From: Candidatus Limnocylindria bacterium
Lineage (GTDB): Bacteria > Chloroflexota > Limnocylindria > P2-11E
DNA length: 53,652 nucleotides
Assembly: GCA_036569845.1 (NCBI GenBank)
Contig: DATCPY010000065.1
Span: 1 to 53,652 of the forward strand
Direction: 5' to 3'
The position numbers and the translations under genes are program-made. This document shows, in pieces, positions 1-13,029 of this stretch. The first letter of the stretch is position 1. Every line of letters starts with the position of its first letter. The notes under the pieces are model-generated. The model saw only the letters and a list, made by a program, of their open reading frames with translations, did not search any database and had not been told where the DNA came from.

Positions 1-289
1 CTTCGTCGATGCCGGCCCGCGCGAGCCAGCGGCGAAGCTCCGCGCCCGCGCGGCCGGAGAACGGCATCCGTGTCGTGAGCTCGACGATCCCTGGCGCCTG
101 GCCGACGATCATCACGCGATCGGTGACGTCGCCGGCGACGACGGGGGCGGCCGCGTCGAGGTAACCCGCCTCAACGCACTTCGTGCACGCGCGGATCCGG
201 GCGTGCAGGCGCTTGAGCTTCGCCGCGTCGGTCGGATCGCGCACGACCATCGCCGCGTCGGCCTTGGCGCGCTGTAGATGCGATCTCAT
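1..289 (-). CDS. Uracil-DNA glycosylase superfamily protein (Fe-S family 4/5-like), N-terminal part. The gene runs off the window start.
   Basis: Manual minus-strand translation from ATG at 289 gives MRSHLQRAKADAAMVVRDPTDAAKLKRLHARIRACTKCVEAGYLD...RVMIVGQAPGIVE...PFSGRAGAEL. The CxxC near the N-terminus and the GQAPG and FSGxxG motifs fit the UDG superfamily. It is absent from the ORF track because it is truncated by the window edge. Confidence 0.6.
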   Translation of the reverse strand, partial: MRSHLQRAKADAAMVVRDPTDAAKLKRLHARIRACTKCVEAGYLDAAAPVVAGDVTDRVMIVGQAPGIVELTTRMPFSGRAGAELRRWLARAGIDE

Positions 290-328
290 GGGCTTCACAC
301 GACGTTATGAGATGTGCATATTTGAGGA

Positions 329-1291
329 ATGGAACGACGACGATCGCTCCGCATCGATCGCGAACGGCTGGCGTGGGCGGCCGGTTTCTACGACGGGGAA
401 GGCACGACCTTCGCGAAGTCTGATAGCGACCGTCCTGGCTACCATCAGCTCTATGTCTCCGTCCCGCAGGCGGGAATCTCTACGCCACGCGTCCTCGAGC
501 GCTTCCGATCCTCACTGTTCGGCATGGGCAGGATCGACCCGCCCTCGACGAACGGCGCATACGTTTGGCGTGCGCGTGGCTTCGTTGACGCTCAGCAGTC
601 GGTGATCTGTCTTTGGCCGTATCTCGGGACGATCAAGAGGCAACAGGCTGCGGCCGCGATGCGTCGCGTATCGGGCCAGTTCAGCAGCGGCAGATACCGG
701 GCAAGACCCCCGAAGTCTAGACCGGTACTCGTCGAACATCGCATCTCGCGGCCGAGTGATCCCTCGCGGCTCGATCGCGCTTGGGCCGCGGGGTTCCTCG
801 ACGCCGAGGGTTGCTTTGGTCTCGCTCGAAGCCATAGGCGGGGTGACGGTTCGTCGTGGTATCGGATCCGAGCCTCCGCCAGCCAAAAGGGCGAGATCGG
901 CCGACCGCCGGAGGTCCTCGAGCAGCTGCATCGCGTGTTGGACGGCATCGGACGCATCGAGCGCCACGGCGAACCCGATGACTTCAAGTGGCTGGTCGAG
1001 GGAGTTCCCGCCGTGCGACAGGTTCTCACCATCGTTGGTCCATGGCTCAGCTCGGTGAAGCGGGAACAGGCGTGGAAGGCGCTCGACGACTTTCTCGGCC
1101 AGCGGCGGATCCACGGCGATCACGAACGTTGCGTTCGCGGGCACGCGTACGACAAGCGGGTGCTGCTGCAGGGCGGCCGTAGCCGCGGCTACTGCAATAC
1201 GTGCCGACGGTTGCTGGATCGACGGAAGCGAGCCGCGCAAGGGGTCGCTCCGCGTCAGTTCCGGAACGTCGCGCGTCGCTACACTGAATGA
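329..1291 (+). mobile_element. Free-standing double-motif LAGLIDADG homing endonuclease with a C-terminal Cys/His zinc-ribbon-like tail
   Basis: 320-aa ORF with two LAGLIDADG-type motifs, LAWAAGFYDGEG (residues about 14-25) and RAWAAGFLDAEGCFGL (about 150-165). The tail is ERCVRGHAYDKRVLLQGGRSRGYCNTCRRLL (CxxxH...CxxC). Third-codon positions look more A/T-rich than in neighbouring genes. Confidence 0.8.
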
Positions 1292-1297
1292 CGTCCA

Positions 1298-1374
1298 CGG
1301 GGTGTGGCCTAGCCCGGTTTAAGGCGCCACTCTGGGGGAGTGGAGACTCGCGGGTTCAAATCCCGCCACCCCGA
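1298..1374 (+). tRNA. tRNA-Pro: tRNA-Pro (anticodon GGG); CCA not encoded
   Basis: Manual cloverleaf: acceptor CGGGGTG/CACCCCG; D arm GCCT-AGCCCGGTTTA-AGGC; anticodon arm CCACT-CTGGGGG-AGTGG (U33, GGG at 34-36, G37); T arm GCGGG-TTCAAAT-CCCGC; discriminator A. The variable region seems to be 6 nt, which is slightly unusual. Confidence 0.85.
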
Positions 1375-1393
1375 CTGCCAGTAACCTACGAGG

Positions 1394-2692
1394 CTACGCC
1401 TCCACCGCCGCTGCCACGCTTGCCGGGAGCGCGACGCGGAACGTCGTGCCCTTCCCCACCTCGCTGTCGGCCCAAATGCGCCCGTTGTGGCGGTCGACGA
1501 TCTCCTTGGTGATGTAGAGACCGAGCCCCATGCCGCCAACATCACGCGCGAGGCGGTCGGGGGATCGGTAGAAGAGGCCAAAGACGCGGGCCAGCTCAGC
1601 CGGGCGGATGCCGATCCCGTGATCCTCGACCGTGAACTCGATCTCCTGCGCACCCACCCGCGTCACCGTCACCTCGATGGCACCGCCGTCGGGCGAGTAC
1701 TTCATGGCGTTCCCGATCAGGTTGTTGAGCACCTGCTCCAAGTGGTCGCGGTCACCTCGCACGCCGAGCTTGTGGTCGGGGTCGTAGTGCAGGCGGAGGT
1801 CGTGCTTCGTCGCCATCAGCTGGTGGCGCCGCATGACCTCCGCGAGGAGCTCGGGTAGATCCACGTCCGACACGCGAAGCTCGAGCCGTCCGGATTCGAT
1901 CCGCGAGACGTCGAGCAGCTCGTCGACGAGCCGAGCAAGCTTTGAGGTCTGCCGCTGCACGACCTCGAGCTGCTCGAGGAGGGTCTCCTCCTCTTTCTTC
2001 CAGTCCGCCTCGGCCGGCCTGCCCGCGCCCAGGCGCCGCTTGATCCGCCGCACCGCGATCTGCACGAATCCGGACATCGCCGTGATCGGCGTTTTCAGCT
2101 CGTGGGATGCGATCGAGAGGAACTGCGACTTCAGCTTGTCCAGCTCCTGCAGCTTCTCGTAGCTCGTCTGCAGCTCGGCACGGGCCTGGTCCAGCTCTTC
2201 GACGCGTTCCTGCAGCGAGTGCGTCGCCTCGGCGACGCGATCCTGCAGACCTTCGTTGAGCTCGTGGATCGTCTGGTTCGCCGCCTCGAGCTCTGTCACG
2301 CGCGTGCGCAGCTGCTCGCCGAGCCGCCGCCGCTCGATGCCGCGCGCGACCGTCGCGCGCAGCTCCTCCACGTCCGCGGGCTTGAGCATGTAGTCGTACG
2401 CGCCTTCGCGGAGCGCCTTCACGGCGGACTCGAGCGAGGCGTACCCGGTGAGCACGATGCCAACGGTGTCGCGCGATCGTTTGCGCGCCGCCGCGAGCAC
2501 GTCCATGCCGTCGAAGTCGTCGAGCCGGAGGTCGGTCAGCACGAGGTCGAACTCCTCGGCCTCGATCTGCGACAGCGCGTCCTGACCCCGGAGCGCGGTC
2601 GCGACGCTGTAGCCGTCCATCTCGAGGATCGCGGCCATCGTGATCGTGACGCTCTCCTCGTCATCGACGACCAGCACCCTAGGCGGCGGCAT
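1394..2692 (-). CDS. Hybrid response-regulator receiver / histidine kinase (REC, coiled coil, HisKA, HATPase_c)
   Basis: The N-terminus VLVVDDEESV...LVLTDLRLDDFDGMDV...LKP is a REC domain. A long coiled coil follows, then the H-box SIASHELKTPITAM and the G-boxes DHGIGI and GMGLGLYITKEIV. ATG at 2692 overlaps the upstream kinase stop by 14 nt. Confidence 0.9.
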   Translation of the reverse strand: MPPPRVLVVDDEESVTITMAAILEMDGYSVATALRGQDALSQIEAEEFDLVLTDLRLDDFDGMDVLAAARKRSRDTVGIVLTGYASLESAVKALREGAYDYMLKPADVEELRATVARGIERRRLGEQLRTRVTELEAANQTIHELNEGLQDRVAEATHSLQERVEELDQARAELQTSYEKLQELDKLKSQFLSIASHELKTPITAMSGFVQIAVRRIKRRLGAGRPAEADWKKEEETLLEQLEVVQRQTSKLARLVDELLDVSRIESGRLELRVSDVDLPELLAEVMRRHQLMATKHDLRLHYDPDHKLGVRGDRDHLEQVLNNLIGNAMKYSPDGGAIEVTVTRVGAQEIEFTVEDHGIGIRPAELARVFGLFYRSPDRLARDVGGMGLGLYITKEIVDRHNGRIWADSEVGKGTTFRVALPASVAAAVEA

Positions 2693-4751
2693 CTGGCGGC
2701 GGACCTCCGATCGGGAGCGTCATGCTGAAGACCGAGCCGCCGCCGGGCTGGTTGCGCACTTGCAAACGCCCGCCGTGGCTCTGCGCGATCCCAAGGCTCA
2801 CCCAGAGGCCGAGGCCGGTGCCCTTTTTGCCCTTCGTCGAGAAGAACGGCTCGAAGATGTGCGCAAGGTATTCCTCCGCGATCCCCGGCCCGGTGTCCGC
2901 GACCTGGATGCGCACCGCATCGGTCCGAATGAAACCCGAGGCCGCGTCACGATGCGATTCGGTCGACACGGTGACGAGCCCGCCCTTCGGCATCGCCTCG
3001 GCCGCGTTCAGCACGAGGTTGAGGATGACCTGCTTGATCTGGTCCGATGAGGCCATGACCTTCGGCAGGTCCGGCTGGAGCTTCTTCTCCACCTTCACGT
3101 TGCGCTCGCGGAGCCGCTTCGCGACCAGGGCCTCGGCCTCCTCGATGAGCGCGTTCAGGTCGGTCGGCACGAGGTCCGCCGCCGGCCGGTAGAAGCCGAG
3201 CATCTGCCGGAGGATCCGGCTCATCCGCTCGGTCTCTTTCATCGCGATGTTCAAGAACTTGGCGTTCGGGTCATCGTCGGGAATGCGCTTCACGAGGAGG
3301 TAGAGGGCGTTCTGGATCGCCTCGAGCGGGTTGTTGATCTCGTGCGCGATCGAGGCTGCGAGCCGGCCGGTCGCGGCGAGCTTCTCGGACTCGAAGAGAG
3401 CCTGCTCCAGCCGGCGGCGCTCGAGCTCGCGAAGGCGACCGACGTCCTGCATGACCGACACGGTCGCGATGGTCGCGCCGACGGTGTCGCGGACCTCGTT
3501 CGCGGTCACCTGCAGCTCGAGCTCCTCACCCGTGTCGACGTCGGTGAGCCGCAGCTCGCCGGTCCGCCGGGTCTCGGGATCGAGAGACAGCTGGGCCAGG
3601 AACGAGGTGAACTTCGCGTCGTTGCGCATCGCGACCTGGTTTCGGCGCGATTGCACGAGCGGATCGCGCGGCGGCTTGAACAGCCGATCGGCCGCTGCGT
3701 TCATGCTGACGATCTCGTTCGTGTTGTCGACGACGATGATCGGGTTCGGCACGTTGCGGAGCACGAGATCCAAACGGTCCCGCTCCATCCGGATCTCCTG
3801 GTCGACGGACTGCAGGCGCTGGATGTTCGCGGATAGCTCCTGGGTGACGTGCCGCAGGTCAGTCACGTTCTTGAGGACCGATACGACGCCCTTGGCGCCG
3901 ATGCGGTAATTGGTCGCCGGCGAGGTGATGACCTCGAAGATGAGCTCGTCGCCTTCGATCGGGTCGACGAGGGTCAGCTCACGGGTGCGCTCGCTCGCGC
4001 TCTGGAGATTCCAGGTCGAGAGCGCCGCGGTGAACAGGAAGTTGTTCATCGAGATCGCGTGCGCCTTTCCGGCGCTGTCGTCCTTGCCGCTCTTGAACAG
4101 CAGCTCGGCGCTGTGGTTCGCGAGCACGAGCTCGTTCTGGTCGTCGGTCACCACGACGGGGTCGGCGAAGGCGTTGACCATCCACCAGAGCCATTCCTTC
4201 TCGATCGCGTGGGCCTCGGCGCCGAGGCGTAGCTCGGCGACGGAACGGGCCTGTGCCAGGAGGCTCCCGGCCTGCGACGCGAACGGGGCGAGGGCCCGTA
4301 CATCGGCATCGCTCGCCGGCGCGCCCTTCGAGAGCAGCACCACGCCGATCGGCGGCTGATCGGCGCCGCGCAACGGCGCGACGACGAATGACTCGAAGCC
4401 GAGCTCCGTGAGGATCTCCCGCGTCGTCGGCGTGACCCGCTCGTCGGAGGCCACGTCGTCGACCCGCTGCGGCACCCCGGAGTGGAACGCGACGATGCTC
4501 GGATCCTGGAGGTTCGCCAGAGGGACCGAGAACGCCTCAGCGATCTGATCGGCGATGCCGCGGCCGAATCGGCCGCGGATCACGCGCGTCCGTTCATCGG
4601 CGAGCGCTACGAGCGATCGCTCGTAGCCGAACGCGCGAGCCAGACCATCGAGCACCGGCAGGAGCGCCGCTTCGGGATCGGTCCCGATCAGCAGCTCTCG
4701 CGGAAGGGCCTCGAACTCGTCGAGCGCGGTGCGCTCGATCGCGCCGGCCAT
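2679..4751 (-). CDS. Cytoplasmic sensor histidine kinase (GAF, two PAS-like regions, HisKA, HATPase_c)
   Basis: 690 aa. The N-terminal region is GAF-like (LDGLARAFGYERSLVAL...VVAPLRG...IGVVLL). The central part has PAS-like segments. The H-box is ASIAHEINNPLEAI and the ATP-lid is GTGLGLWVSLGIAQSHGGRLQV. No obvious TM segment. Confidence 0.88.
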   Translation of the reverse strand: MAGAIERTALDEFEALPRELLIGTDPEAALLPVLDGLARAFGYERSLVALADERTRVIRGRFGRGIADQIAEAFSVPLANLQDPSIVAFHSGVPQRVDDVASDERVTPTTREILTELGFESFVVAPLRGADQPPIGVVLLSKGAPASDADVRALAPFASQAGSLLAQARSVAELRLGAEAHAIEKEWLWWMVNAFADPVVVTDDQNELVLANHSAELLFKSGKDDSAGKAHAISMNNFLFTAALSTWNLQSASERTRELTLVDPIEGDELIFEVITSPATNYRIGAKGVVSVLKNVTDLRHVTQELSANIQRLQSVDQEIRMERDRLDLVLRNVPNPIIVVDNTNEIVSMNAAADRLFKPPRDPLVQSRRNQVAMRNDAKFTSFLAQLSLDPETRRTGELRLTDVDTGEELELQVTANEVRDTVGATIATVSVMQDVGRLRELERRRLEQALFESEKLAATGRLAASIAHEINNPLEAIQNALYLLVKRIPDDDPNAKFLNIAMKETERMSRILRQMLGFYRPAADLVPTDLNALIEEAEALVAKRLRERNVKVEKKLQPDLPKVMASSDQIKQVILNLVLNAAEAMPKGGLVTVSTESHRDAASGFIRTDAVRIQVADTGPGIAEEYLAHIFEPFFSTKGKKGTGLGLWVSLGIAQSHGGRLQVRNQPGGGSVFSMTLPIGGPPPDAAA

Positions 4752-4769
4752 CAGCCGGTCACCGAGCCG

Positions 4770-5072
4770 CTAGCGACGTTCCGCGGCGCCGGCCGGTGCC
4801 GACGACGGCGTGCCCGACATCCCGCCCGAGCCGATCGATCCACCGCTGCCCGATCCGGCAGCGGGGCGAGCGACGGTCGACGTGATGCCGAGGGCCTCGG
4901 CGTAGCGGAGGTACGTGTCGATCGACGCGACGACGACGCGAGCCTCGACGGTGATCAGGTCGATGCCGACGAGCGAGACCCGGATCCAGGCATCGATGAC
5001 GATGCCCTTGTCCAGGATCCGGTCGAGGACATCGATGAGGCTGGTGCCACCAGCGGCGCGTTCAACTGGCAT
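4770..5072 (-). CDS. gvpA: Major gas vesicle structural protein GvpA with a Gly/Ser-rich C-terminal extension
   Basis: [52 protein letters not shown] is almost colinear with the canonical GvpA core ([49 protein letters not shown]). An ATG start is present. Confidence 0.93.
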
Positions 5073-5079
5073 TTCTTAC

Positions 5080-5403
5080 CTACCGTTTCGGATTCGCGGA
5101 CTTGAGCGTGCGTTCGAGATCGGCAATGCGCGCTTCGAGACGTTTGATTTCTCCCGCTCCATCGCCACCGCTCGCGCCTGGCTCGACGAGCCGCTTGTCG
5201 TACCGCCACCAGTTCAGCCCGATCTGCTCGGCCTTGTCGATCGAGCAGACCAGGAGCCGGATGCGGATCGTGAGCAGCTCGACGTTCGCGAGCGAGATGC
5301 TGATGTCACCCGCGACCACGAGGCCCTTGTCGAGGACCCGGTCGAGGATGTCGATGATGCTCGTCGACGGCGCGGGCGAGATCCCGCGTCCACTCATTGT
5401 CAT
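5080..5403 (-). CDS. gvpJ: Gas vesicle protein GvpJ/GvpM (GvpA family)
   Basis: SIIDILDRVLDKGLVVAGDISISLANVELLTIRIRLLVCSIDKAEQIGLNWW shows the GvpA-family fold signature, and the trailing WW motif is typical of GvpJ/M. Confidence 0.88.
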   Translation of the reverse strand: MTMSGRGISPAPSTSIIDILDRVLDKGLVVAGDISISLANVELLTIRIRLLVCSIDKAEQIGLNWWRYDKRLVEPGASGGDGAGEIKRLEARIADLERTLKSANPKR

Positions 5404-5410
5404 TGGCGGC

Positions 5411-5731
5411 TCACAATAGCTTTCCGATCGGACCGAGGCCCAGGTTGAGATCGTCGGGGTCCAGGTCGAAGGCCAGCGCCATCTCCCGGACTTTCGCTTC
5501 CAGCCGCATCAGTGCGAGTCCCACCCGCTCGATCTCGTCATCGCTCAGCGTGCCTCCGTCCATCCGTCTGATCGCCTGTCGCTCGAGCAGCTGCCGAAAG
5601 AACTCGACGAGGGTGAGCACCAGCTTGGCCAACCCCTGCTCGACGCCCTCCGGGTCGACATTGACGCGGTCCGGCAGGATCCCGCGGACCCGCTCCAGCT
5701 CTTTCCGGAGCGCCCCGATCTCATCCTCCAC
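5411..5731 (-). CDS. gvpK: Gas vesicle protein GvpK
   Basis: 106 aa. GLAKLVLTLVEFFRQLLERQAIRRMDGGTLSDDEIERVGLALMRLE matches the conserved GvpK core as I recall it. The GTG start overlaps the upstream gene by 11 nt. Confidence 0.8.
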   Translation of the reverse strand: MEDEIGALRKELERVRGILPDRVNVDPEGVEQGLAKLVLTLVEFFRQLLERQAIRRMDGGTLSDDEIERVGLALMRLEAKVREMALAFDLDPDDLNLGLGPIGKLL

Positions 5732-6470
5732 GGCCGCTCCCGAGCTCCTCGGTGAAGCTGTAGGGCGGCCACGGCCCGCTCACCACCCCGCGAACGCCCG
5801 CGATCGCGCCCACGGCCGACGTCGCCCGCGCCTTCAGCGCGCCGGCCTCGTCCCTCCGAGCCAGTAGCGACATGGACAGCGCCACCTCAGCGCTCGGGCA
5901 ACTTTCGTGCCGAGCGTCTGCTTGGTCGATCGACAGCTCGACGCGGAGCCGCTCCGCGAACGCGTCGGCCAGATACCGGCGTTCGTCGGTGACGGCATGC
6001 GCCGCTCGCTTGCGATCGAGGAATTTCCGGCCGGCCCCGTCCCCGTCCTTCGTGCGGCCGGGCCCGGCTTGGCCGGCCCCGGCCGAGCCCCATTCAAAGG
6101 CGCCTGGCCGCACGATTTCGGCGGCATCTTGCCAGAGCAGGGTCACCGCGACTTCTTGGCTCTCACCGAGCCGGTCGATGGCGGCGCTGAACCGGTCTTG
6201 ATCGGTCTCGAGCGATCGTCGGGCGGCAGCCTCGTCAATGAGCCAGGTGCCGAACCGGACGGGCAAGCATGGCCCCGCCTCGCACAGCACCGCGACCAGG
6301 TCGTGATGGGCGAACGCGTCGTCGCGCGAGAGCGTCGGCTCGCCATCCCACCTCGTCGCCCACAATCCGAGCTCGCCGGCGGTGATCTGCTCGAGGGGCC
6401 GGCCGCGAAGCCCCGCCTCCGGGCCATCGGCGGCGCGGCGCGTGATCGCGTGCGCCAGGAATCGGGTCAC
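5721..6470 (-). CDS. gvpL: GvpL/GvpF family gas vesicle protein (paralog 3), carrying an in-frame copy of a GC-rich hairpin repeat
   Basis: 249 aa. It ends with SGPWPPYSF, the typical GvpL/F C-terminal motif. The N-terminal LPVRFGT resembles the GvpF/L core. GTG start in a GTGA overlap with the gvpS-like stop. Confidence 0.75.
   Translation of the reverse strand: MTRFLAHAITRRAADGPEAGLRGRPLEQITAGELGLWATRWDGEPTLSRDDAFAHHDLVAVLCEAGPCLPVRFGTWLIDEAAARRSLETDQDRFSAAIDRLGESQEVAVTLLWQDAAEIVRPGAFEWGSAGAGQAGPGRTKDGDGAGRKFLDRKRAAHAVTDERRYLADAFAERLRVELSIDQADARHESCPSAEVALSMSLLARRDEAGALKARATSAVGAIAGVRGVVSGPWPPYSFTEELGSGRGG
6038..6097. repeat. GC-rich REP-like hairpin element, copy 1 (inside the gvpL/F paralog CDS)
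   Basis: CGTCCCCGTCCTTCGTGCGGCCGGGCCCGGCTTGGCCGGCCCCGGCCGAGCCCCATTCAA matches 16554-16613 at 56/60 positions by manual alignment. It contains a 13-bp imperfect stem (6055-6067 / 6073-6085). Confidence 0.8.
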
Positions 6471-6664
6471 TTCGTGCGTGCTTCCTTCTGGGCGATGGTC
6501 TCGACGGCCGTCAGGATGACGTTGAGGCCGAGGTAGATCAGGTCAACGCCCGCGACGGAGATCGTGGCCTCGCCGGTGATGACCACGCCGCGGTTCAGCA
6601 GCCGGTCGACGAGATCGAGGACGCTGAGCTCCTCGTCGGGGAGCGCCGCGAGCGGGCCGGTCAT
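6467..6664 (-). CDS. gvpS: Small GvpA-family protein (GvpS-like)
   Basis: 65 aa starting at the internal ATG (6664) of the long track ORF 6467..7264: MTGPLAALPDEELSVLDLVDRLLNRGVVITGEATISVAGVDLIYLGLNVILTAVETIAQ. ATGA overlap with the upstream stop. Confidence 0.8.
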   Translation of the reverse strand: MTGPLAALPDEELSVLDLVDRLLNRGVVITGEATISVAGVDLIYLGLNVILTAVETIAQKEARTK

Positions 6665-7446
6665 GACAGCTCGACCGTCGAGAACCGGTACGCCGGCCAG
6701 GGACCGCTGAGCTCCAGCGCATAGCCGCGCGCGCCCCACGCCGCGCCGAAGGAGCTGCGGAGCGCATCGAGCGTGGCCGTCGCGTCGCGAGCTGCGAGCA
6801 CCGAGAACCGCGCGATCATCCCGCCGCCGGCGTCCTCGACGAGCGGCTCGCGGAACAGCGGCATCGTGGCGCCCTCGAATGACCCCGTCGCCGCGGCGAC
6901 GGCCGCCGCGTCGGCCGCGCGCAGCTCCTGGCGCTTCGTCTCGTCGAGCCGGCGGGCGACGAGGTAGGCGCGCCCCGGCGGCGCTGCCTCGATCTCGGCC
7001 CGCAGCGCGCGGAGCGCCTCGCTCCCCTGCTCCACGGCCGCCAGCGCCGCGTCCTTGTCCCGCCGGACCACCGCGATCCACTCCGCCTTGCCCCGAAGGG
7101 ACTCGAACCGCGGGCCGAGCTCCGCGCCGCGTTCGCGAAGCATCCGGGTCACGCCGTCCGCGTCGCGGAAGACGGTACCGAACGAGAGCGGGACGAGCGG
7201 ATCGCACGCACTCGCGAGCGCGCCATTCACGTCCTGATGGCGGACGGCGCGCGGAGTGAGCCACTCCATATCGGACAGGTGCGCGTTCAGCGGGGCCTCG
7301 GCGTAGTCGCTTTCGGGAACGTCGCTCACGAATGCCGCGAGGTCGCCATCGCGGATCGCGCGGATCGCCCCGTCATCGAGGCCCCGCAGGCCGCCGGGCT
7401 CCGCGCAGACGGCGCGCGCGATCGCGTAGACATAGACGAGGCTCAC
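6661..7446 (-). CDS. gvpL: GvpL/GvpF family gas vesicle protein (paralog 2)
   Basis: Starts at GTG 7446 (GTGA overlap with the gvpG stop): VSLVYVYAIAR...LVPLSFGTVFRD...SGPWPAYRFS. The part of track ORF 6661..7845 upstream of this is an Arg/Gly-rich artefact. Confidence 0.8.
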   Translation of the reverse strand: MSLVYVYAIARAVCAEPGGLRGLDDGAIRAIRDGDLAAFVSDVPESDYAEAPLNAHLSDMEWLTPRAVRHQDVNGALASACDPLVPLSFGTVFRDADGVTRMLRERGAELGPRFESLRGKAEWIAVVRRDKDAALAAVEQGSEALRALRAEIEAAPPGRAYLVARRLDETKRQELRAADAAAVAAATGSFEGATMPLFREPLVEDAGGGMIARFSVLAARDATATLDALRSSFGAAWGARGYALELSGPWPAYRFSTVELS

Positions 7447-7781
7447 GCGGGCCGGTCGAGCTCCTCGGGCGTCTCGATGATGGCGACCCGCCCCGATCCT
7501 GTCTCCGCGACGAGCCCGGCCATCTGCTCCTCCGCGAGCTGCTTGCGGTACGCGCGGATGGTCGAGAACTGCGCCAGGAGCGGGGCCTCTTGGCGTCGGA
7601 ACTCCGCCTCGTCGATCTCGCCGTCCTCGAGGCGCATGTTCAGGAGGATGAGCTCGTCCTTCACCGCGGAGTCGTCGGTCATCTCGACCTCGGCCATCTG
7701 GATGACCTGATTGATGCAGTACTTGATGCCCGCTGCAGGAAGCGAGTACGGGAGCATGAGCAGCTTGCCGAGGCCGAACAC
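7443..7781 (-). CDS. gvpG: Gas vesicle protein GvpG
   Basis: 112 aa. The N-terminus FGLGKLLMLPYSLPAAGIKYCINQVIQMAE and the following acidic helix (ELILLNMRLEDGEIDEAEF) fit my recollection of GvpG. GTG start 3 nt after the gvpF stop. Confidence 0.75.
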   Translation of the reverse strand: MFGLGKLLMLPYSLPAAGIKYCINQVIQMAEVEMTDDSAVKDELILLNMRLEDGEIDEAEFRRQEAPLLAQFSTIRAYRKQLAEEQMAGLVAETGSGRVAIIETPEELDRPA

Positions 7782-7784
7782 GGC

Positions 7785-8603
7785 CTAGACCGAAGCCGAG
7801 CGCTCGAGCTGCAGGCGGATCGTCACGAAGTTGTATGGCGGCCACGGACCCGTGTAGCGGAACGAGAGCGTGCCCTCGAACTTCTTGCCGATGTCGTGGA
7901 CCTTCGCGTCGAAATGCTCCGCCTGGTCGCGGGCCACGAGGAACGCCGCGTTCATGATCATCTTGTCGCCGATGACCTTGTTCGACCGCGACGCGATCGC
8001 GGCATCGCGGAGATGGTCGTAGATCTCCCGAACGAACGAGTCGGACTTGTCCGCCAGCGCCTGCTCGACGAGCCGGCCAAGCTGCATGCGGGCGAAGTAC
8101 GTCGAGGACTGGGTGTTCGTCTGGATCTCGGCCTTGAGCCGGCGGATCTCCTCGTTCTGCTCCTCGATCTCGCGCAGGACCTGCTCGCGATCCCAGTTCA
8201 CCTTGAGACCGAACTCCAGCTTGTCCTTCATCTTCAGCAGCACATCGCGAAGCGCGTCATACGTGTCCTTCAGGAACTCGACGGTGTCGTTGTCGGTCTT
8301 GAACAGCGTCCCGAAGCTCATCGGCACCGGCGTGAAGCCGTGCTCGTTCATGACGACTTCCTGCACGTGTTCGTGGGTCAGGGCGTTCTCGCGGGTCGGG
8401 TCGTAGACGATGAGCGGTGCGCGGCTGACCACGGCCGCGAGATCCCGGTGGTGCACGGTGAAGACCTCGTCACCGCGGCCACCGATGCCGATGGTCCCGA
8501 AGGTCCGCGACTCGCCTGCCTCGATGATGCAGTACACGTAGACGCCGTCCTGGGCGGCCTCGCCCTCGGCGACAGCTGCGGTACCGCCTCGCTCTTCGCT
8601 CAT
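7785..8603 (-). CDS. gvpF: Gas vesicle protein GvpF
   Basis: 272 aa. GVYVYCIIEAGE...FTVHHRDLAAVVS...THEHVQEVVMNEHGFTPVPMSFGTLFK...YTGPWPPYNF is strongly GvpF-like. It is Lys/Glu-rich and visibly less GC-biased than the two other L/F paralogs. Confidence 0.9.
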   Translation of the reverse strand: MSEERGGTAAVAEGEAAQDGVYVYCIIEAGESRTFGTIGIGGRGDEVFTVHHRDLAAVVSRAPLIVYDPTRENALTHEHVQEVVMNEHGFTPVPMSFGTLFKTDNDTVEFLKDTYDALRDVLLKMKDKLEFGLKVNWDREQVLREIEEQNEEIRRLKAEIQTNTQSSTYFARMQLGRLVEQALADKSDSFVREIYDHLRDAAIASRSNKVIGDKMIMNAAFLVARDQAEHFDAKVHDIGKKFEGTLSFRYTGPWPPYNFVTIRLQLERSASV

Positions 8604-8615
8604 CTGCGCGGAATA

Positions 8616-8840
8616 TTACGTCGCGAGGTTGAGGAATTCGCGCGTGAAGCCGTACAGCTTCTCGCGGTCCTCGGGGAGCACCGGGCGCAGGCCGTAGTGG
8701 TTGATGACCCGGATCTGAGCGGCGGTCCACTCCTTCCAGCACTCGGCGCAGACGCGCTGCTCGATCTCAAGGCCGAGCGCGCCGGGCAATCCGGTCTTCC
8801 CCGCACCTTGGCGAGTGTTGCCGCAGCGCGCACACGTCAC
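8616..8840 (-). CDS. yggX: YggX-like Fe(2+)-trafficking / oxidative-damage protection protein
   Basis: 74 aa from GTG 8840: VTCARCGNTRQGAGKTGLPGALGLEIEQRVCAECWKEWTAAQIRVINHYGLRPVLPEDREKLYGFTREFL. The pattern C..(x)..PG.LG..I......W..W......IN...L.....R..L......FL matches my recollection of the YggX family. Confidence 0.65.
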   Translation of the reverse strand: MTCARCGNTRQGAGKTGLPGALGLEIEQRVCAECWKEWTAAQIRVINHYGLRPVLPEDREKLYGFTREFLNLAT

Positions 8841-8848
8841 GTCGGTCG

Positions 8849-9181
8849 TCAGCGGACGAGGCCGATCCGGTGTAGCGGCGCGTAACGGACGAACGGCCGG
8901 CCTACCACCGCCGAGCCTGGGATCGCCCCGAACTGCCGCGAGTCCGTCGACTCCGCGGGATCCGGATGGTCGCCTCGAACGATCACCTGATCGCCCGCGA
9001 CCGCGCTCACGCGCTTCACGAGGAGCCGCTCGGGCTCGCGCGGGTCGGTCGCGACCACGAGCTCGCCAGGGCGTGGCGGGCGGCGAAGCTGCCGCACGAG
9101 CAGCCAATCACCGTCCTGGAAGGTGGGCTCCATGCTGCGGCCGGCGACGGCGACCCGGAACAGCGCCGTCGCCGGTCTCAC
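8849..9181 (-). CDS. sodX: Nickel-SOD maturation protease SodX (S26/S24 signal-peptidase-like)
   Basis: 110 aa from GTG 9181 (GTGA overlap with the sodN stop). It has the GRSMEPTF catalytic Ser motif and LVKRV...GD (Lys motif). It sits immediately downstream of sodN. Confidence 0.8.
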   Translation of the reverse strand: MRPATALFRVAVAGRSMEPTFQDGDWLLVRQLRRPPRPGELVVATDPREPERLLVKRVSAVAGDQVIVRGDHPDPAESTDSRQFGAIPGSAVVGRPFVRYAPLHRIGLVR

Positions 9182-9588
9182 TTCTTGGTCGCCCAGAAGA
9201 TGTCGGCGATCTCCTTGACCGCCGCCTGGAGATCGGCCGCGGCCTTCGCGTCGACGCTCTGCTTGTTCTTCGAGCAGAGCTTCGCCGCCTTCCAGAAGGT
9301 GTCGTGGAGCTTCGGGTACTTCTCGAGGTGCTCGGGCTTGAAGTAGTCGGTCCAGAGGATGAGCAGCTCCTTTTTGCAGATCTGGGCGTGCTCCTCCTTC
9401 ACCGCGACCGAGCGGATGAACGTGTTGCGGCTGGCCTCGTCCGTGCCGGTCGACGCGGTGATCTTCTCGATCATCTTCGCGACGGTGTCGGACGCGATCT
9501 TCGCCGCGGTCGGGTCGTAGATGCCGCACGGGATGTCGCAGTGGGCGTGCGCCACGAGCCGTGGCGCGATCAGCGAGCGCAGGTCCAT
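9178..9588 (-). CDS. sodN: Nickel-containing superoxide dismutase precursor
   Basis: MDLRSLIAPRLVAHA followed by HCDIPCGIYDP is a 15-aa leader plus the Ni-hook motif (canonical form HCDLPCGVYDP). GGAGG lies 7 nt upstream of the ATG. Confidence 0.92.
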   Translation of the reverse strand: MDLRSLIAPRLVAHAHCDIPCGIYDPTAAKIASDTVAKMIEKITASTGTDEASRNTFIRSVAVKEEHAQICKKELLILWTDYFKPEHLEKYPKLHDTFWKAAKLCSKNKQSVDAKAAADLQAAVKEIADIFWATKK

Positions 9589-9631
9589 GAGTCGTCCTCC
9601 CCGGTGGATGTGCTTCGGATTATGGGCGCGG

Positions 9632-11140
9632 TCAGGGGTTCGCGTCGACGAGGGCCACGTCGATGGTCATCGCTCGGTCGACCGTCACCGGCCGACCCTC
9701 GACGCTCACCAGCTCGCTCGGGAACGGCGCGAAGAAATCGAAGATGTAGCTCCCGCGTGGCAGCGCGACCGAATACGTGCCCGTCGAATCGGTATACGTG
9801 CCGGTCAAGAAGCCCTGCCCGTCCGACACGTTCACCGACGCGCCCTCGAGCGGGATGCCGGTCTGCGAACGGAGCACCCCGCTCACGACGAAGCCCCGCT
9901 GCAGCTTGACGTCCACGGTGACGTTCTGCGACCGCACGGTCACGGTGTTCGCGTCGAGCCACGTGCGGCCGCCGCCGACGTACTGGGGCAGGAGATCGCT
10001 GCCGTCCGGCGGGATGATCTGCACCATGTAGCTCTCCGGCCGGGTCGTGATGCGGTAGGCGCCGCTCGCATCGGTCGGCCGGCAGATCCGCCCAGTCGGG
10101 AACGGCGTGTCGGCGCACACGAACGCGTGGATGACCGGCCCGCCCGCTGGGTCGGTGACGTGGCCGACGATCGACGGCCCCCCGCCGAGGACCTGATCGA
10201 TGACCCGATCGCGGCTGAGGTCCACCGGCGTCGCCCCTACGCCGACGGAGGCGTCGTCGAACCATTGCATGAGCAGCGGCTCATCATCGGGCGGGATCAT
10301 CCAGACCCAGTACGTGTCGGGCTCGCGCAGCGCCACGTAGTGGCCGTGATCGTCGGTGCGTTCGCAATCCCAGGGCAGCGACTGGCTGAACGGGTGGGTG
10401 CAGACCTGGGCCTTTTTCACCGGACGGCCGTCCGTCGCAGTCACCGTGCCCTGCAGCGTCACGCCCTGTCGCAGCACCACGTCCACACCCGACGCGTCCG
10501 CTGACCGGACGTCGATGACGTCGGCCTCGCCGCTGTCGACGCGGCCATAGGCCCATTGCGAGAGGAGCCGCAGCCCGGGTCCGCCGTCGAAGCTCATCTT
10601 GTAGAGGCCGGGCGTGACGTCGACGAAGTACGTTCCGTCTGCCTTGCTCTTGTCGCAGACCGACGCAGCGAGGGAGAGCGGATTCGCGCACACCGGTGCC
10701 AGCCCGACCGGCTTCGTGTTCGGATCGGTGATCGTGCCGCTGATCCGGCGGACCTTCTCGAACTGGAGGCGGATCGACGCGTCTCCGCGGGTGAGATCGG
10801 CGCCCGCGGGCGCGCCGCCCTGTGGGCCGGCCGGCACGCCGTCGACGTCGACGCGCCGTTGGCTCGCGGGCGCTTCCGACCGGACCTGGTAGGTGCCCGT
10901 CGGAAGAGTGAAGCTCGCGATGCCGTCCGCACCGGTCGGCGCGCACGTCTGGGTGCCCGACAGCGTGGCCGCGCACACCCGCAGGCCGGCGACCGGCCCG
11001 TCCGCGCCCGCGGCGACGACCTGGAGCTTGTGGGTCGCCGGCCCCGACGATGGCACGACCGCCGGTGCGGGCGCTGAGCAGGCTGCCGCGATGACCCCAA
11101 CGACGAGCCATTTCACAGCGGCTTTACGGATGACTGTCAC
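9632..11140 (-). CDS. Lipoprotein with about five tandem carboxypeptidase-regulatory-like (beta-sandwich) repeats
   Basis: The signal/lipobox is MTVIRKAAVKWLVVGVIAAAC. Repeated modules of the type G.V.D..G.PV....VC.......C..TD..G.Y......P..Y recur about every 90-100 aa. Four of them carry a conserved Cys pair. GTG start with an upstream AGGGAA. Confidence 0.7.
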   Translation of the reverse strand: MTVIRKAAVKWLVVGVIAAACSAPAPAVVPSSGPATHKLQVVAAGADGPVAGLRVCAATLSGTQTCAPTGADGIASFTLPTGTYQVRSEAPASQRRVDVDGVPAGPQGGAPAGADLTRGDASIRLQFEKVRRISGTITDPNTKPVGLAPVCANPLSLAASVCDKSKADGTYFVDVTPGLYKMSFDGGPGLRLLSQWAYGRVDSGEADVIDVRSADASGVDVVLRQGVTLQGTVTATDGRPVKKAQVCTHPFSQSLPWDCERTDDHGHYVALREPDTYWVWMIPPDDEPLLMQWFDDASVGVGATPVDLSRDRVIDQVLGGGPSIVGHVTDPAGGPVIHAFVCADTPFPTGRICRPTDASGAYRITTRPESYMVQIIPPDGSDLLPQYVGGGRTWLDANTVTVRSQNVTVDVKLQRGFVVSGVLRSQTGIPLEGASVNVSDGQGFLTGTYTDSTGTYSVALPRGSYIFDFFAPFPSELVSVEGRPVTVDRAMTIDVALVDANP

Positions 11141-11196
11141 TTCCCTGCCTCGAATCGTGAATGAAGGAGAGAACGAACGGAAGCGAGGCGAGCCAA

Positions 11197-11364
11197 ATGG
11201 AGTCAGAACTGATCGCGATCGGCGTGGTCCTCCTGGTCGTCGCAGCGGTGCTGCTCGTCGCGGTCGGTGCCGGGCCCACCCCGCTCGATGCCCACATCGC
11301 GGCCGTCCGCGTCGAGGCGCAGGCCCACGTCCTCGTCAGTGCGGTCGCCGCGCATCTCCCGTAG
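11197..11364 (+). CDS. Possible small single-pass membrane protein (55 aa)
   Basis: MESELIAIGVVLLVVAAVLLVAVGAGPTPLD... is preceded by GAGG. Third-position GC is high in this frame. It overlaps the gpsA 3-prime end convergently by 29 nt and could be spurious. Confidence 0.3.
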   Translation: MESELIAIGVVLLVVAAVLLVAVGAGPTPLDAHIAAVRVEAQAHVLVSAVAAHLP

Positions 11365-12400
11365 CCACCCGCAGCAGCCGTGAGACCTCGGCGAGCGGGC
11401 CCGAGAGCTCTTCGCCCCGCTCACGTTCCATGAGACCCCGCATCGCGTCCCGGATGGGCTTTCCCTCGAACAGGACCCGATAGGTCTCGGCGGCGATCGG
11501 CATGTCGACGCCCTTCGCCAAGGCGAGCGCGTGGACCGCCTCGGTCGTCCCGATCCCTTCGGCGACCTGGCCACCCAGTCGCCGCTTGATGTCGGCGATC
11601 GTCGCGCCCTTGGCGAGCTGCTCTCCGACCGTGCGATTCCGCGAGTGGACGCTCGTGCACGTGGCGATGAGGTCGCCGAACCCCGCGAGGCCGGCGCAGG
11701 TGAGCGGATCCGCGCCGCTCGCGAACGCGTATCTCGCGATCTCAGCGAGACCTCTGGTCATGAACCCGGCCTTCGCGTTGACCCCGTACCCCATGCCGTC
11801 GATGGCGCCGGCGCCCAGGGCGACGATGTTCTTGAGCGCGCCGCAGAGCTCGACCCCGATGACGTCGTCATTCGTGTACGCGCGGAACATCGGCGTCCCG
11901 AGGAGCTCTTGGAACGCCTTCGCGGTGTCTCGGTCCGAGGACGCGATGACCGTCGGCGCAGGAAGGCCGGCCGCGATCTCGCGAGAGATGTTCGGGCCGG
12001 AGAGCACCGCGACCCGCGACGCCGGCATCGCATCCGTCCAGAGCTCGCTCATGCGCCGCGAGTCATCGGGGGTGAGCCCTTTCGTCGCCGAGCACAGCCG
12101 GTGCGCGGGCCGCAGCAGCGGCGCGACGCGGTCGCGCAGCAGGCGAACGCCCTGCGCCGGGGTCGCGACCACGAGCGAATCCGCCTCGAGCGCACGCTCG
12201 AGGTCGTCCGTGACGATCACCGTGTTCGGGATCGTGACCCCGGGGAGGTAGGGGGCGTTCTCGCGCCGCGCGGCGATCTCGTTCGCCCGCGCCGCATCAC
12301 GGGTCCAGAGGACCACGGAACGTCCGCCATCGCGGGCGAGGATCGTCGCGAGCGTCGTACCCCAGGACCCGGCCTGGAGGATCGCTACGTCGACGGGGAT
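11336..12400 (-). CDS. gpsA: NAD(P)H-dependent glycerol-3-phosphate dehydrogenase. The start codon is uncertain (no ATG/GTG/TTG is available).
   Basis: VAILQAGSWGTTLATILARDG is the Rossmann motif. GALKNIVALGAG and the rest are colinear with GpsA. The 5-prime end is set at the ATC codon (12400) just upstream of the Rossmann motif. The upstream part of track ORF 11336..13090 overlaps plsY. Confidence 0.85.
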   Translation of the reverse strand: MPVDVAILQAGSWGTTLATILARDGGRSVVLWTRDAARANEIAARRENAPYLPGVTIPNTVIVTDDLERALEADSLVVATPAQGVRLLRDRVAPLLRPAHRLCSATKGLTPDDSRRMSELWTDAMPASRVAVLSGPNISREIAAGLPAPTVIASSDRDTAKAFQELLGTPMFRAYTNDDVIGVELCGALKNIVALGAGAIDGMGYGVNAKAGFMTRGLAEIARYAFASGADPLTCAGLAGFGDLIATCTSVHSRNRTVGEQLAKGATIADIKRRLGGQVAEGIGTTEAVHALALAKGVDMPIAAETYRVLFEGKPIRDAMRGLMERERGEELSGPLAEVSRLLRVATGDARRPH

Positions 12401-13029
12401 CTGCGTTGCCCGAGCCGCGGCTCGTTGCCGCGGACGATCCGCTCGATGTTCGCCCGGTGCCGGATGATGACGATCAAGCCGGCGATCACGATGAAACCCA
12501 GCACCGCCCAGTGGAACGAGAGATAGCCGGCGGACACGAAGATGATGTAGCCGACCAGCGCGCCGGCCACCGATGCCAGCGAGCTCACGCTCACCATCCG
12601 CGTGATCGCGAGGGCGAGCATGAACGCGACGACCGCGCCGAGCCACGCCGGCGTCGCGATGAACAGGAGCGCGCCAAAACCCGTCGCGACGCCGCGGCCG
12701 CCGCGGCCCTCGAGGAACGCCGGCCAGCAGTGACCGGCGACCGCGGCCACTGCCGCGACGGCCGCCGCCACGCTCCGCTCGTCGGCAGATCCGTCCACGA
12801 TCGCCGACGCGATCCACACGGACAGCGCGCCCTTCAGGATGTCGAGGATCGCCACGAGCAACGCGGCACCGAGACCGAGGTTGCGGTACGTGTTCGTCGC
12901 CCCCGTCGAGCCCGAGCCGACCGTGCGGAGGTCGACGTTGCGGTACATCCGGCCGACGATGTAACCGCTGGAGACCGACCCGATCCCGTAGCCGATGATG
13001 CCGCAGGCGACGATGCGAGCCAGGTCCAT
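12385..13029 (-). CDS. plsY: Glycerol-3-phosphate acyltransferase PlsY
   Basis: GSVSSGYIVGRMYRNVDLRTVGSGSTGATNTYR is the PlsY signature. It is polytopic. ATGA overlap with the der stop. Confidence 0.92.
   Translation of the reverse strand: MDLARIVACGIIGYGIGSVSSGYIVGRMYRNVDLRTVGSGSTGATNTYRNLGLGAALLVAILDILKGALSVWIASAIVDGSADERSVAAAVAAVAAVAGHCWPAFLEGRGGRGVATGFGALLFIATPAWLGAVVAFMLALAITRMVSVSSLASVAGALVGYIIFVSAGYLSFHWAVLGFIVIAGLIVIIRHRANIERIVRGNEPRLGQRRSPST

Follow-up and report, generated by a model that had tools for sequence, protein, structure and literature searches.

A putative gas-vesicle gene cassette with its own histidine kinase pair, conserved across soil Chloroflexota and placed in one clade beside a Ni-SOD/YggX unit

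In the 53,652-nucleotide (nt) stretch of contig DATCPY010000065.1 from a Candidatus Limnocylindria bacterium, which is called the window here, the genes of a nickel superoxide dismutase (Ni-SOD), its maturation protease (sodN and sodX) and a YggX-like protein are directly followed by eight gas-vesicle (gvp) genes and two histidine kinase genes, HK1 and HK2. As judged from the comparison with relatives, a cassette of gas-vesicle genes and a kinase pair dedicated to them appears to be conserved across soil Chloroflexota, and one clade carries it beside an independent Ni-SOD/YggX unit. In the window, we consider it probable that two separable units are placed side by side: namely, sodN-sodX-yggX, and the cassette gvpF-G-L-S-L-K-J-A-HK1-HK2, in which the gas-vesicle genes would be equipped with their own kinases.

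The linkage of the kinases with the gvp genes was evaluated by a scan of GTDB, one genome per species, with GvpF as the query, which gave 80 loci; tblastn with the window's 15 proteins against every locus then provided the gene bounds. The closest GvpF loci (95–84% identity) are labelled Candidatus Limnocylindria (Chloroflexota), and the remoter ones (~65–70% identity) are mostly Thermoanaerobaculia (Acidobacteriota); the window locus was also found on 16 metagenome contigs. A compact gvpF-to-gvpA cluster is present in 40 species. Among the species counted for kinase linkage, whose GvpF identity runs from 95% down to ~70%, HK1 comes next after gvpA in 38/38 compact clusters with at least 700 nt beyond gvpA (a count that takes in two partial HK1 copies at contig ends), and HK2 comes next after HK1 in 34/34 compact clusters with room for it. 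The gap between gvpA and HK1 is mostly 9–18 nt, where the window clade keeps GGTGACCGGCTG, and the GGTGA in this element resembles part of an extended Shine–Dalgarno sequence ahead of HK1. Furthermore, two Chloroflexota loci whose clusters are longer and laid out differently (L057 and L072) likewise have the kinase pair behind gvpA, and the pair is absent from 19/19 non-Chloroflexota gvp clusters (mostly Acidobacteriota-labelled). The adjacency of gvp genes and kinases first noticed in a single genome is hence a recurrent one, and the gvp genes and the two kinases appear to behave as one unit. One could suppose, alternatively, that the kinases are ordinary neighbours without any gas-vesicle role, held by inherited synteny; the cassette has no DNA-binding output gene, both kinases score below the cut-offs of all named families, and the evidence for the link is all comparative. 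Nonetheless, complete linkage across differing upstream contexts and two cluster layouts, the short conserved gaps with a Shine–Dalgarno-like element, and the joint absence of both kinases and gvp from a relative described below (L090/L091) make this supposition highly improbable.

The same cannot be said of the upstream side. The order gpsA-lipoprotein-sodN-sodX-yggX directly upstream of gvpF was found in only 15/36 species with enough upstream sequence, and the other upstream contexts are a LuxR-HTH/PAS regulator, ATP synthase genes, a sigma/anti-sigma pair and unrelated genes; the sodN-sodX-yggX-gvp adjacency does recur, but it is not general among relatives. A metagenome scan with YggX gave 7 loci, and gvpF lies downstream in all those with room. 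Contigs of a further relative, L090 (GCA_009772835.1) and L091, were found via a search with the YggX-like protein; they keep der-plsY-gpsA-lipoprotein-sodN-sodX-yggX, followed further on by UDG, HTH_17, CAP and AhpC, and they have no gvp gene and no kinase, both kinases being missing along with gvp. In blastn, L090 4297-5213 corresponds to window 9557-8634 and L090 5252-5367 to window 1378-1264. These alignments flank gvpF-HK2, and window 1379-8615 is therefore exactly one presence/absence unit, a 7.2-kb cassette on the minus strand (1379..8615) that is bounded by the yggX stop codon on one side and by the 3′ end of a tRNA-Pro gene on the other. This tRNA-Pro (GGG) gene (1298..1375, plus strand; ARAGORN, and Rfam tRNA at 1298-1374 with 57.6 bits) is convergent with HK2 and forms the downstream boundary; in L090, it begins 6 nt past the yggX stop.

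Separation is also seen within the upstream genes. In L014, 3.6 kb lies between sodX and yggX, with a glpD-like gene and an opposite-strand glycerophosphodiester-phosphodiesterase-like gene (both named from sequence, not from profile matches), and the gap between yggX and gvpF is ~180–216 nt. Because the opposite-strand gene stands between sodX and yggX, sodN-sodX cannot be co-transcribed with gvp in this genome. The first-pass annotation had treated the whole array as one module; its gvp-and-kinase part is supported as a unit, but a functional fusion with the Ni-SOD module is not (15/36 species, L014, and L090/L091), and the Ni-SOD unit would be an independent neighbour rather than part of the gas-vesicle module.

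As to the history of the locus, SodN of L090/L091 is of the window type (79% identity), this relative and the gvp-bearing L087 are at about equal distance from the window, and the sister clade carries the cassette at the same site. For these reasons, one clean cassette loss is the simplest history, and the simplest reading of L090/L091 is thus a whole-cassette loss in this lineage. A cassette that fits exactly between yggX and the tRNA-Pro 3′ end, is all-or-none among relatives and has varied genomic surroundings within the phylum could also be a horizontally acquired island integrated at the tRNA-Pro 3′ end, the place of which beside sodN-yggX would be accidental; the recombinant look of one relative (L010) within the cluster would be consistent with such mobility. 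No integrase was found at the locus, however, no direct repeat of the tRNA-Pro 3′ end was found at the yggX|gvpF junction, and the GC content of the cassette matches that of its flanks. Since, furthermore, the same site is used in two diverged clades and the gvp-less lineage has the window-type SodN otherwise seen in gvp-bearing lineages, ancestral presence with one loss is favoured, and we regard an island as very unlikely. In L010 itself (DATCPK010000011.1, 137-8000), YggX and GvpF are of the window type (91–92% identity), and GvpG to HK2 are of the sister-clade type (43–58%), which points to recombination at the gvpF|gvpG junction or to a chimeric assembly there.

The array was read in six frames for open reading frames (ORFs), with a check of each candidate start codon over window 1394-11140, and the gene identities come from Pfam and NCBIfam profile searches. 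We recovered 14 genes, all on the minus strand, and every gene and spacing of the co-directional array described in the first-pass annotation was reproduced. The lipoprotein-like gene is separated from sodN by 43 nt; sodN and sodX overlap by 4 nt, followed by gaps of 8 nt (sodX-yggX), 12 nt (yggX-gvpF) and 3 nt (gvpF-gvpG). The pairs gvpG/gvpL1, gvpL1/gvpS and gvpS/gvpL2 overlap by 4 nt each and gvpL2/gvpK by 11 nt, gaps of 7 nt each separate gvpK-gvpJ and gvpJ-gvpA, HK1 begins after another 18 nt, and HK1/HK2 overlap by 14 nt.

From this layout, it had been proposed that a single operon, responsive to oxygen or redox state, extends from sodN (or the lipoprotein gene) to HK2 and joins superoxide defence with buoyancy, HK1 being its sensor. 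The shared strand and gaps of at most 43 nt are in line with this proposal, and so is the lack of terminator-like hairpins in the gaps, none having been found on the minus strand in window 1-13000; the RNA folds at the junctions are no more stable than those of shuffled sequences (z from −0.44 to +0.53), and an Rfam search gave tRNA-Pro only. The arrangement is, moreover, kept in ~15 species representatives and further metagenome contigs, even though adjacency from the lipoprotein gene to HK2 does not hold across relatives. Nonetheless, 24 genes follow in succession on one strand from scpA to HK2, the junctions of the housekeeping part are equally tight (−4, −4, −1, 50, 18, 0, −1 and 68 nt), and the 53-kb window is mostly minus-strand. 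Because the same tight co-directional packing runs through the housekeeping genes scpA-gpsA, which it would equally "link" to the array, spacing alone does not mark the array as special, and tight co-directional spacing in this genome is not by itself a sign of a functional unit.

Sequences ahead of sodN and gvpF, furthermore, suggest separate promoters. A consensus scan gave a promoter-like site, TCGACG-18 nt-CATAAT, for sodN (9619..9648, minus strand), and the ribosome-binding site GGGGAGGA sits downstream of the CATAAT box in the 43-nt gap; the CATAAT/GATAAT box and GGGGAGGA are kept in all close relatives, and the bases around them vary. Ahead of gvpF, a −10-like hexamer TAATAT (8613..8618, minus strand) incorporates the yggX stop codon and is separated from the gvpF ATG by 9 nt; namely, the junction reads TAATAT-tccgcgcag-ATG, in which TAA is the yggX stop codon. 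TA[A/G]TAT is kept at this place in 7 close species (L007-L013), and L015 has a looser TAGACT; the spacer varies (7–9 nt), and no Shine–Dalgarno sequence precedes gvpF in the window or those 8 close species. Most of the sodN-less relatives have a TAnnnT box 5–11 nt upstream of the gvpF start, also without a Shine–Dalgarno sequence, and in the gvp-less L090 the box is absent after yggX. TANNNT at ~12 nt upstream of the start codon is the published signature of leaderless genes in high-GC bacteria and has been reported in Chloroflexi as well (PMC3160421). TAATAT is hence a candidate, suggestive only, for the promoter of a leaderless or near-leaderless gvpF mRNA, and it is a signal of the type that the first-pass annotation had named as speaking against a single transcriptional unit through yggX|gvpF. 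A TATTGT box was also noticed 9 nt upstream of the gvpJ ATG (window 5404-5420), where it is made by the last gvpK codons; a TAnnnT box at that distance before gvpJ is present in 14/62 loci, and such a box could arise by chance from the conserved C-terminus of GvpK or mark an internal start for gvpJ-gvpA.

Public sequencing runs with the locus are of DNA, and from soil metatranscriptomes only conserved fragments of 31–60 nt map to the window at 96% identity. Soil and rhizosphere metatranscriptomes (runs X13, X14 and X16) have abundant gvpA/J-, gvpF- and sodN-like contigs at identities of at least 80%, which match window 4670-5343, 7703-8376 and 9051-9387. Related clusters would therefore be transcribed in soil, with cross-mapping from other taxa being possible.

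HK1 (2679..4751, minus strand), which begins 18 nt past gvpA, is a sensor histidine kinase with GAF, PAS-A, PAS-B, HisKA and HATPase domains, and HK2 (1394..2692, minus strand), the last gene of the cassette overlapping HK1 by 14 nt, consists of REC, HisKA and HATPase domains (both by Pfam). The phosphorelay motifs are intact in both, with HisKA and HATPase_c and, in HK2, Response_reg all above the Pfam cut-offs; in the HK2 sequence, the acidic pocket of REC (VVDDEE), the likely acceptor Asp (LVLTDLRLDD) and the H-box (ASHELKTP) are legible. On reading the sequences, we saw no membrane-spanning hydrophobic stretch in HK1 or HK2, and both are therefore taken to be soluble. Neither of the two reaches the cut-off of a named kinase family in NCBIfam.

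An AlphaFold model of HK1 residues 1–450 (mean pLDDT 79.9) has a GAF fold and two PAS folds with long helices between them, confirming the domain reading, and a sequence search found no solved structural relative of the sensor region. The best fold matches are DosP, bacteriophytochromes, PpsR, Brucella LOV-HK and FixL, at 12–16% identity and of a generic tandem-PAS/phytochrome-like kind. The window HK1 sensor has no cysteine, and no His in the sensor region is invariant across 33 orthologues; the best-kept ones are H301 (23/33) and H181 (22/33), and position 231 is His in 19 and Arg in 14. A haem-binding PAS/GAF sensor of the FixL, DosP or DosS/T type is thus unsupported, and so are a LOV site, a covalently bound bilin and a thiol switch, since Cys and an invariant sensor His are both missing. 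In other words, the structure model bears out the GAF and PAS domains without the haem-His or LOV-Cys signatures, there is no positive evidence for HK1 as the oxygen or redox sensor it had been suggested to be, and oxygen or redox sensing would be an analogy rather than a finding. PAS-A is the best-conserved part of the HK1 sensor and, for that reason, is likely to be its ligand site.

How such a kinase pair might act on the gas vesicles can be outlined as follows. The sodN-sodX-yggX genes would form an oxidative-stress unit with its own −10-like promoter box in the 43-nt gap, and the cassette would be transcribed from its −10 box on the yggX stop, to which read-through from upstream may add. 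With its GAF and PAS domains, HK1 would sense a signal in the cytoplasm, autophosphorylate and hand the phosphate to the receiver domain of HK2, the kinase activity of which would then be changed toward a response regulator encoded elsewhere that sets the expression of the gas-vesicle genes. Because the kinases are placed at the end of the gvp operon, they may also feed back on their own level (autoregulation). A similar arrangement is that of LvrA/LvrB in Leptospira, where the kinase genes are adjacent, one of them has a receiver domain, and kinase-to-kinase phosphotransfer is the likely logic; the HK1 core indeed matches LvrB in PDB and NCBIfam searches, but with scores far under the family cut-offs. 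The domain order and the sensor domains, moreover, differ here, and the HK1/HK2 pair is known from its sequence only. As a cognate response regulator, nothing could be proposed at the locus itself: the 53-kb window has no receiver domain besides that of HK2, and it lacks a homologue of the LuxR-PAS regulator that neighbours gvpF in another subclade.

That regulator is present in L031 (5653-9901) and also in L027, L028, L034, L037, L038 and L043, where a 335-residue LuxR-type HTH protein with a PAS-like C-terminal part is encoded before gvpF; the subclade also has a divergent single receiver gene and a REC-GAF-GGDEF-EAL gene before gvpF. The domain names (LuxR-HTH, PAS and REC-GAF-GGDEF-EAL) were read from sequence and are not profile matches. 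These regulators would give the cassette another signalling input, distinct from the kinase pair.

Several points weigh against the two-unit picture and the mechanism outlined above. The gas vesicles are known here from genes alone, in uncultured bacteria, and the operon structure and both promoters are predictions. TAATAT at 9 nt from the ATG is at the long end for a leaderless start; neither a −35 element nor any other embedded signal was found in the 3′ end of yggX, and synonymous sites there vary at least as much as elsewhere in the gene. The sister clade, for its part, has yggX and gvpF directly adjoining or overlapping each other, with a GGAGG site for gvpF, which favours co-transcription and translational coupling there. 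Also, sodN-sodX is found 2–4 kb from gvpF on the opposite strand in L032 and L036, which could be a non-random association or a remnant of ancestral synteny. As for the signalling, the cassette has no DNA-binding response regulator, and for the phosphotransfer from HK1 to HK2 only the domain logic speaks.

The arrangement of yggX and gvpF in the sister clade and the proximity in L032 and L036 would fit the single oxygen- or redox-responsive operon, as would the presence of DosP, FixL and PpsR among the fold matches and the induction of gas vesicles by low oxygen in Serratia (PMC6617781). Co-transcription of yggX and gvpF is plausible, and transcription from the sodN promoter may run into the cassette, as no terminator is evident. 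Nonetheless, each unit is found without the other, sodN and gvpF each have a conserved −10-like box ahead of them, and the fold matches are the generic ones described above, to a sensor in which no FixL-, DosP- or DosS-type haem site or LOV site is supported; a single operon of this kind is hence considered unlikely. More specifically for this clade, read-through from the sodN promoter via yggX might make the Ni-SOD, the YggX-like protein, the gvp genes and the kinases co-vary with oxygen or oxidative stress, sensed by the GAF/PAS kinase; we regard this as quite unlikely. Two separable units thus remain our preferred reading.

The gas-vesicle part of the cassette, all on the minus strand, is composed of gvpF as its first gene (7785..8603; PF06386, E 4.7e-74), gvpG (7443..7781; PF05120, E 2.3e-16), gvpL1, the first GvpL/F paralogue after gvpF (6661..7446; PF06386, E 8.4e-49), gvpS for a small GvpA-family protein (6467..6664; PF00741, E 2.2e-14), gvpL2, the third GvpL/F paralogue (5721..6470; PF06386, E 1.1e-34), gvpK (5411..5731; PF05121, E 6.1e-34), gvpJ for another GvpA-family protein (5080..5403; PF00741, E 1.1e-16) and gvpA for the major shell protein (4770..5072; PF00741, and NCBIfam NF006874 with 113 bits against a subfamily cut-off of 100). 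The shell-protein family PF00741 is thus represented by three genes (gvpS, gvpJ and gvpA), and the accessory core by PF06386 in three genes together with PF05120 and PF05121, all far above the gathering scores. The C-terminal tail of GvpA (window 4770-4860) is ~30 residues long, rich in Gly, Ser and Ala, and lies outside the conserved shell-protein core.

GvpN and GvpC are named among the conserved genes of gvp clusters (PMC9501494), but no Pfam family of gvpN (an AAA+ ATPase) or gvpC was detected in the genes called up to 10 kb away in both directions. The cluster of Streptomyces coelicolor, gvpOAFG-JLSK, is also without both, as given in the gene list of PMC9501494, and has no gvpN and no gvr genes according to PMC4982088; both clusters belong to high-GC soil bacteria and share the core families GvpA, F, G, J, L, S and K. 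They differ in that the order here is F-G-L-S-L-K-J-A with gvpA at the end, that gvpO is absent here, and that the window has one additional GvpL/F paralogue and two appended histidine kinases. The cassette holds a compact, actinomycete-like set of gas-vesicle genes without gvpN, gvpC and gvpO.

Some details of the clusters in relatives can be added. Most of the long, mostly Acidobacteriota-labelled gvp clusters (L054-L083) have a gap of 1.6–5 kb between gvpG and gvpL, and in L064 (10955-12937) this gap holds a gene for a 660-residue protein with two GKGGVGKTT P-loops that looks like an ArsA/GET3-type ATPase. The gap between gvpA and HK1 is widened to 77–136 nt in L087, L025, L041, L042 and L047; that of L087 (9877-10000) contains a GC-rich hairpin, GGGGCGAAGCCCC, which may be an attenuator cutting kinase expression relative to gvpA.

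In the upstream unit, sodN (9178..9588, minus strand) encodes a Ni-SOD precursor (PF09055, E 1.2e-47; TIGR02753 with 168 bits, cut-off 90), in which a 14-residue leader is followed by the nickel hook, MDLRSLIAPRLVAHA|HCDIPCGIY, in agreement with HCxxPCGxY. The maturation of Ni-SOD involves removal of the SodN leader by SodX, which lets the His-Cys nickel hook form, and sodX (8849..9181, minus strand; PF10502, and TIGR02754 with 68.8 bits, cut-off 63.25) encodes the S26-family protease for this purpose. The hook after a leader, the equivalog scores and the adjacent S26 protease gene overlapping sodN by 4 nt together describe a Ni-SOD system. As in the sodN-sodX operons of Streptomyces and marine cyanobacteria, a cleavable leader precedes the hook His-Cys-x-x-Pro-Cys-Gly-x-Tyr, the adjacent gene of the S26-family protease overlaps sodN, and both proteins score above the NCBIfam equivalog cut-offs; sodN-sodX is, therefore, a standard Ni-SOD operon, with the differences that a YggX-like gene comes after sodX here and that SodN of the window clade is divergent. 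Indeed, two types of SodN that are only ~44% identical occur at the same locus: the divergent window type, HCDIPCGIYDPTAAK, in the window clade, and the canonical, Streptomyces-like type, HCDLPCGVYDPEQARIEAES, in the sister clade (L016-L026). As SodX and YggX flanking both types stay orthologous (52–70% identity), sodN would have been replaced in place or have diverged fast.

The 74-residue YggX-like protein (8616..8840, minus strand), of the Fe(2+)-trafficking/oxidative-damage protection family, passes the Pfam cut-off (PF04362, 43.5 bits, cut-off 27), and with 50 bits it stays under the cut-off (74) of the NCBIfam equivalog NF003817. It has two CxxC motifs (four cysteines) that are kept in all aligned relatives; YggX of E. 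coli is not known to have these motifs, and a metal site of its own is possible in the YggX-like protein.

Further out, the first of the 14 genes (9632..11140, minus strand) encodes a lipoprotein-like or secreted protein of 502 residues with four CarboxypepD_reg repeats (PF13620, E 2.9e-30, four stretches) and an N-terminal signal-peptide-like stretch that ends in AAAC. It is found 5′ of sodN in the gvp-less relative also and is a conserved neighbour of sodN outside the gvp cassette. The 195-nt gap between gpsA and this gene holds a small hydrophobic ORF of 50–67 residues (window 11161-11364), the strand call of which differs between pipelines; in the sister clade, the gpsA|lipoprotein gap is only 4–30 nt. 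On the other side, next to tRNA-Pro, a 320-residue ORF (329-1291, plus strand) has a weak match to LAGLIDADG_1 (E 3e-05), and the gvp-less relative shares DNA similarity with this region of the window.

Gas-vesicle clusters with signalling genes of their own are known: Serratia sp. ATCC 39006 and related proteobacterial clusters encode GvrA (of the NtrC family), GvrB and GvrC, and the gvpA1 operon of Serratia is induced under low oxygen (PMC4982088, PMC6617781). The statement in the first-pass annotation that it knew of no described gvp cluster ending in its own kinase pair is, therefore, too broad as regards signalling genes in general; a GAF/PAS kinase and a REC-kinase fixed behind gvpA were not found in the literature searched. 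Regulatory genes are placed inside the gvp locus in both cases, and gvrA/B/C are needed for gvp expression in Serratia. In Serratia, nonetheless, a sigma-54 activator of the NtrC family (GvrA) is used together with GvrB and GvrC, from a second operon that has a promoter of its own, whereas the window has a GAF-PAS kinase and a REC-kinase directly behind gvpA with no DNA-binding protein, and no NtrC-family sigma-54 activator was found in the cassette or its flanks. The literature searched gave no paper treating gas vesicles together with Limnocylindria, and nothing on this cluster was found among reports of gas vesicles in Chloroflexota genomes.

Limnocylindria are common uncultured Chloroflexota of soil and freshwater, and the purpose of gas vesicles in non-aquatic, non-phototrophic bacteria is unsettled, as in Streptomyces. 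The eight-gene set without gvpN, gvpC and gvpO would be a compact candidate for heterologous expression, and the kinase pair in its fixed position is a testable candidate for gas-vesicle switching in such bacteria. If read-through from sodN were true, furthermore, superoxide defence and vertical positioning would be hard-wired to each other in a soil lineage that is abundant and uncultured.

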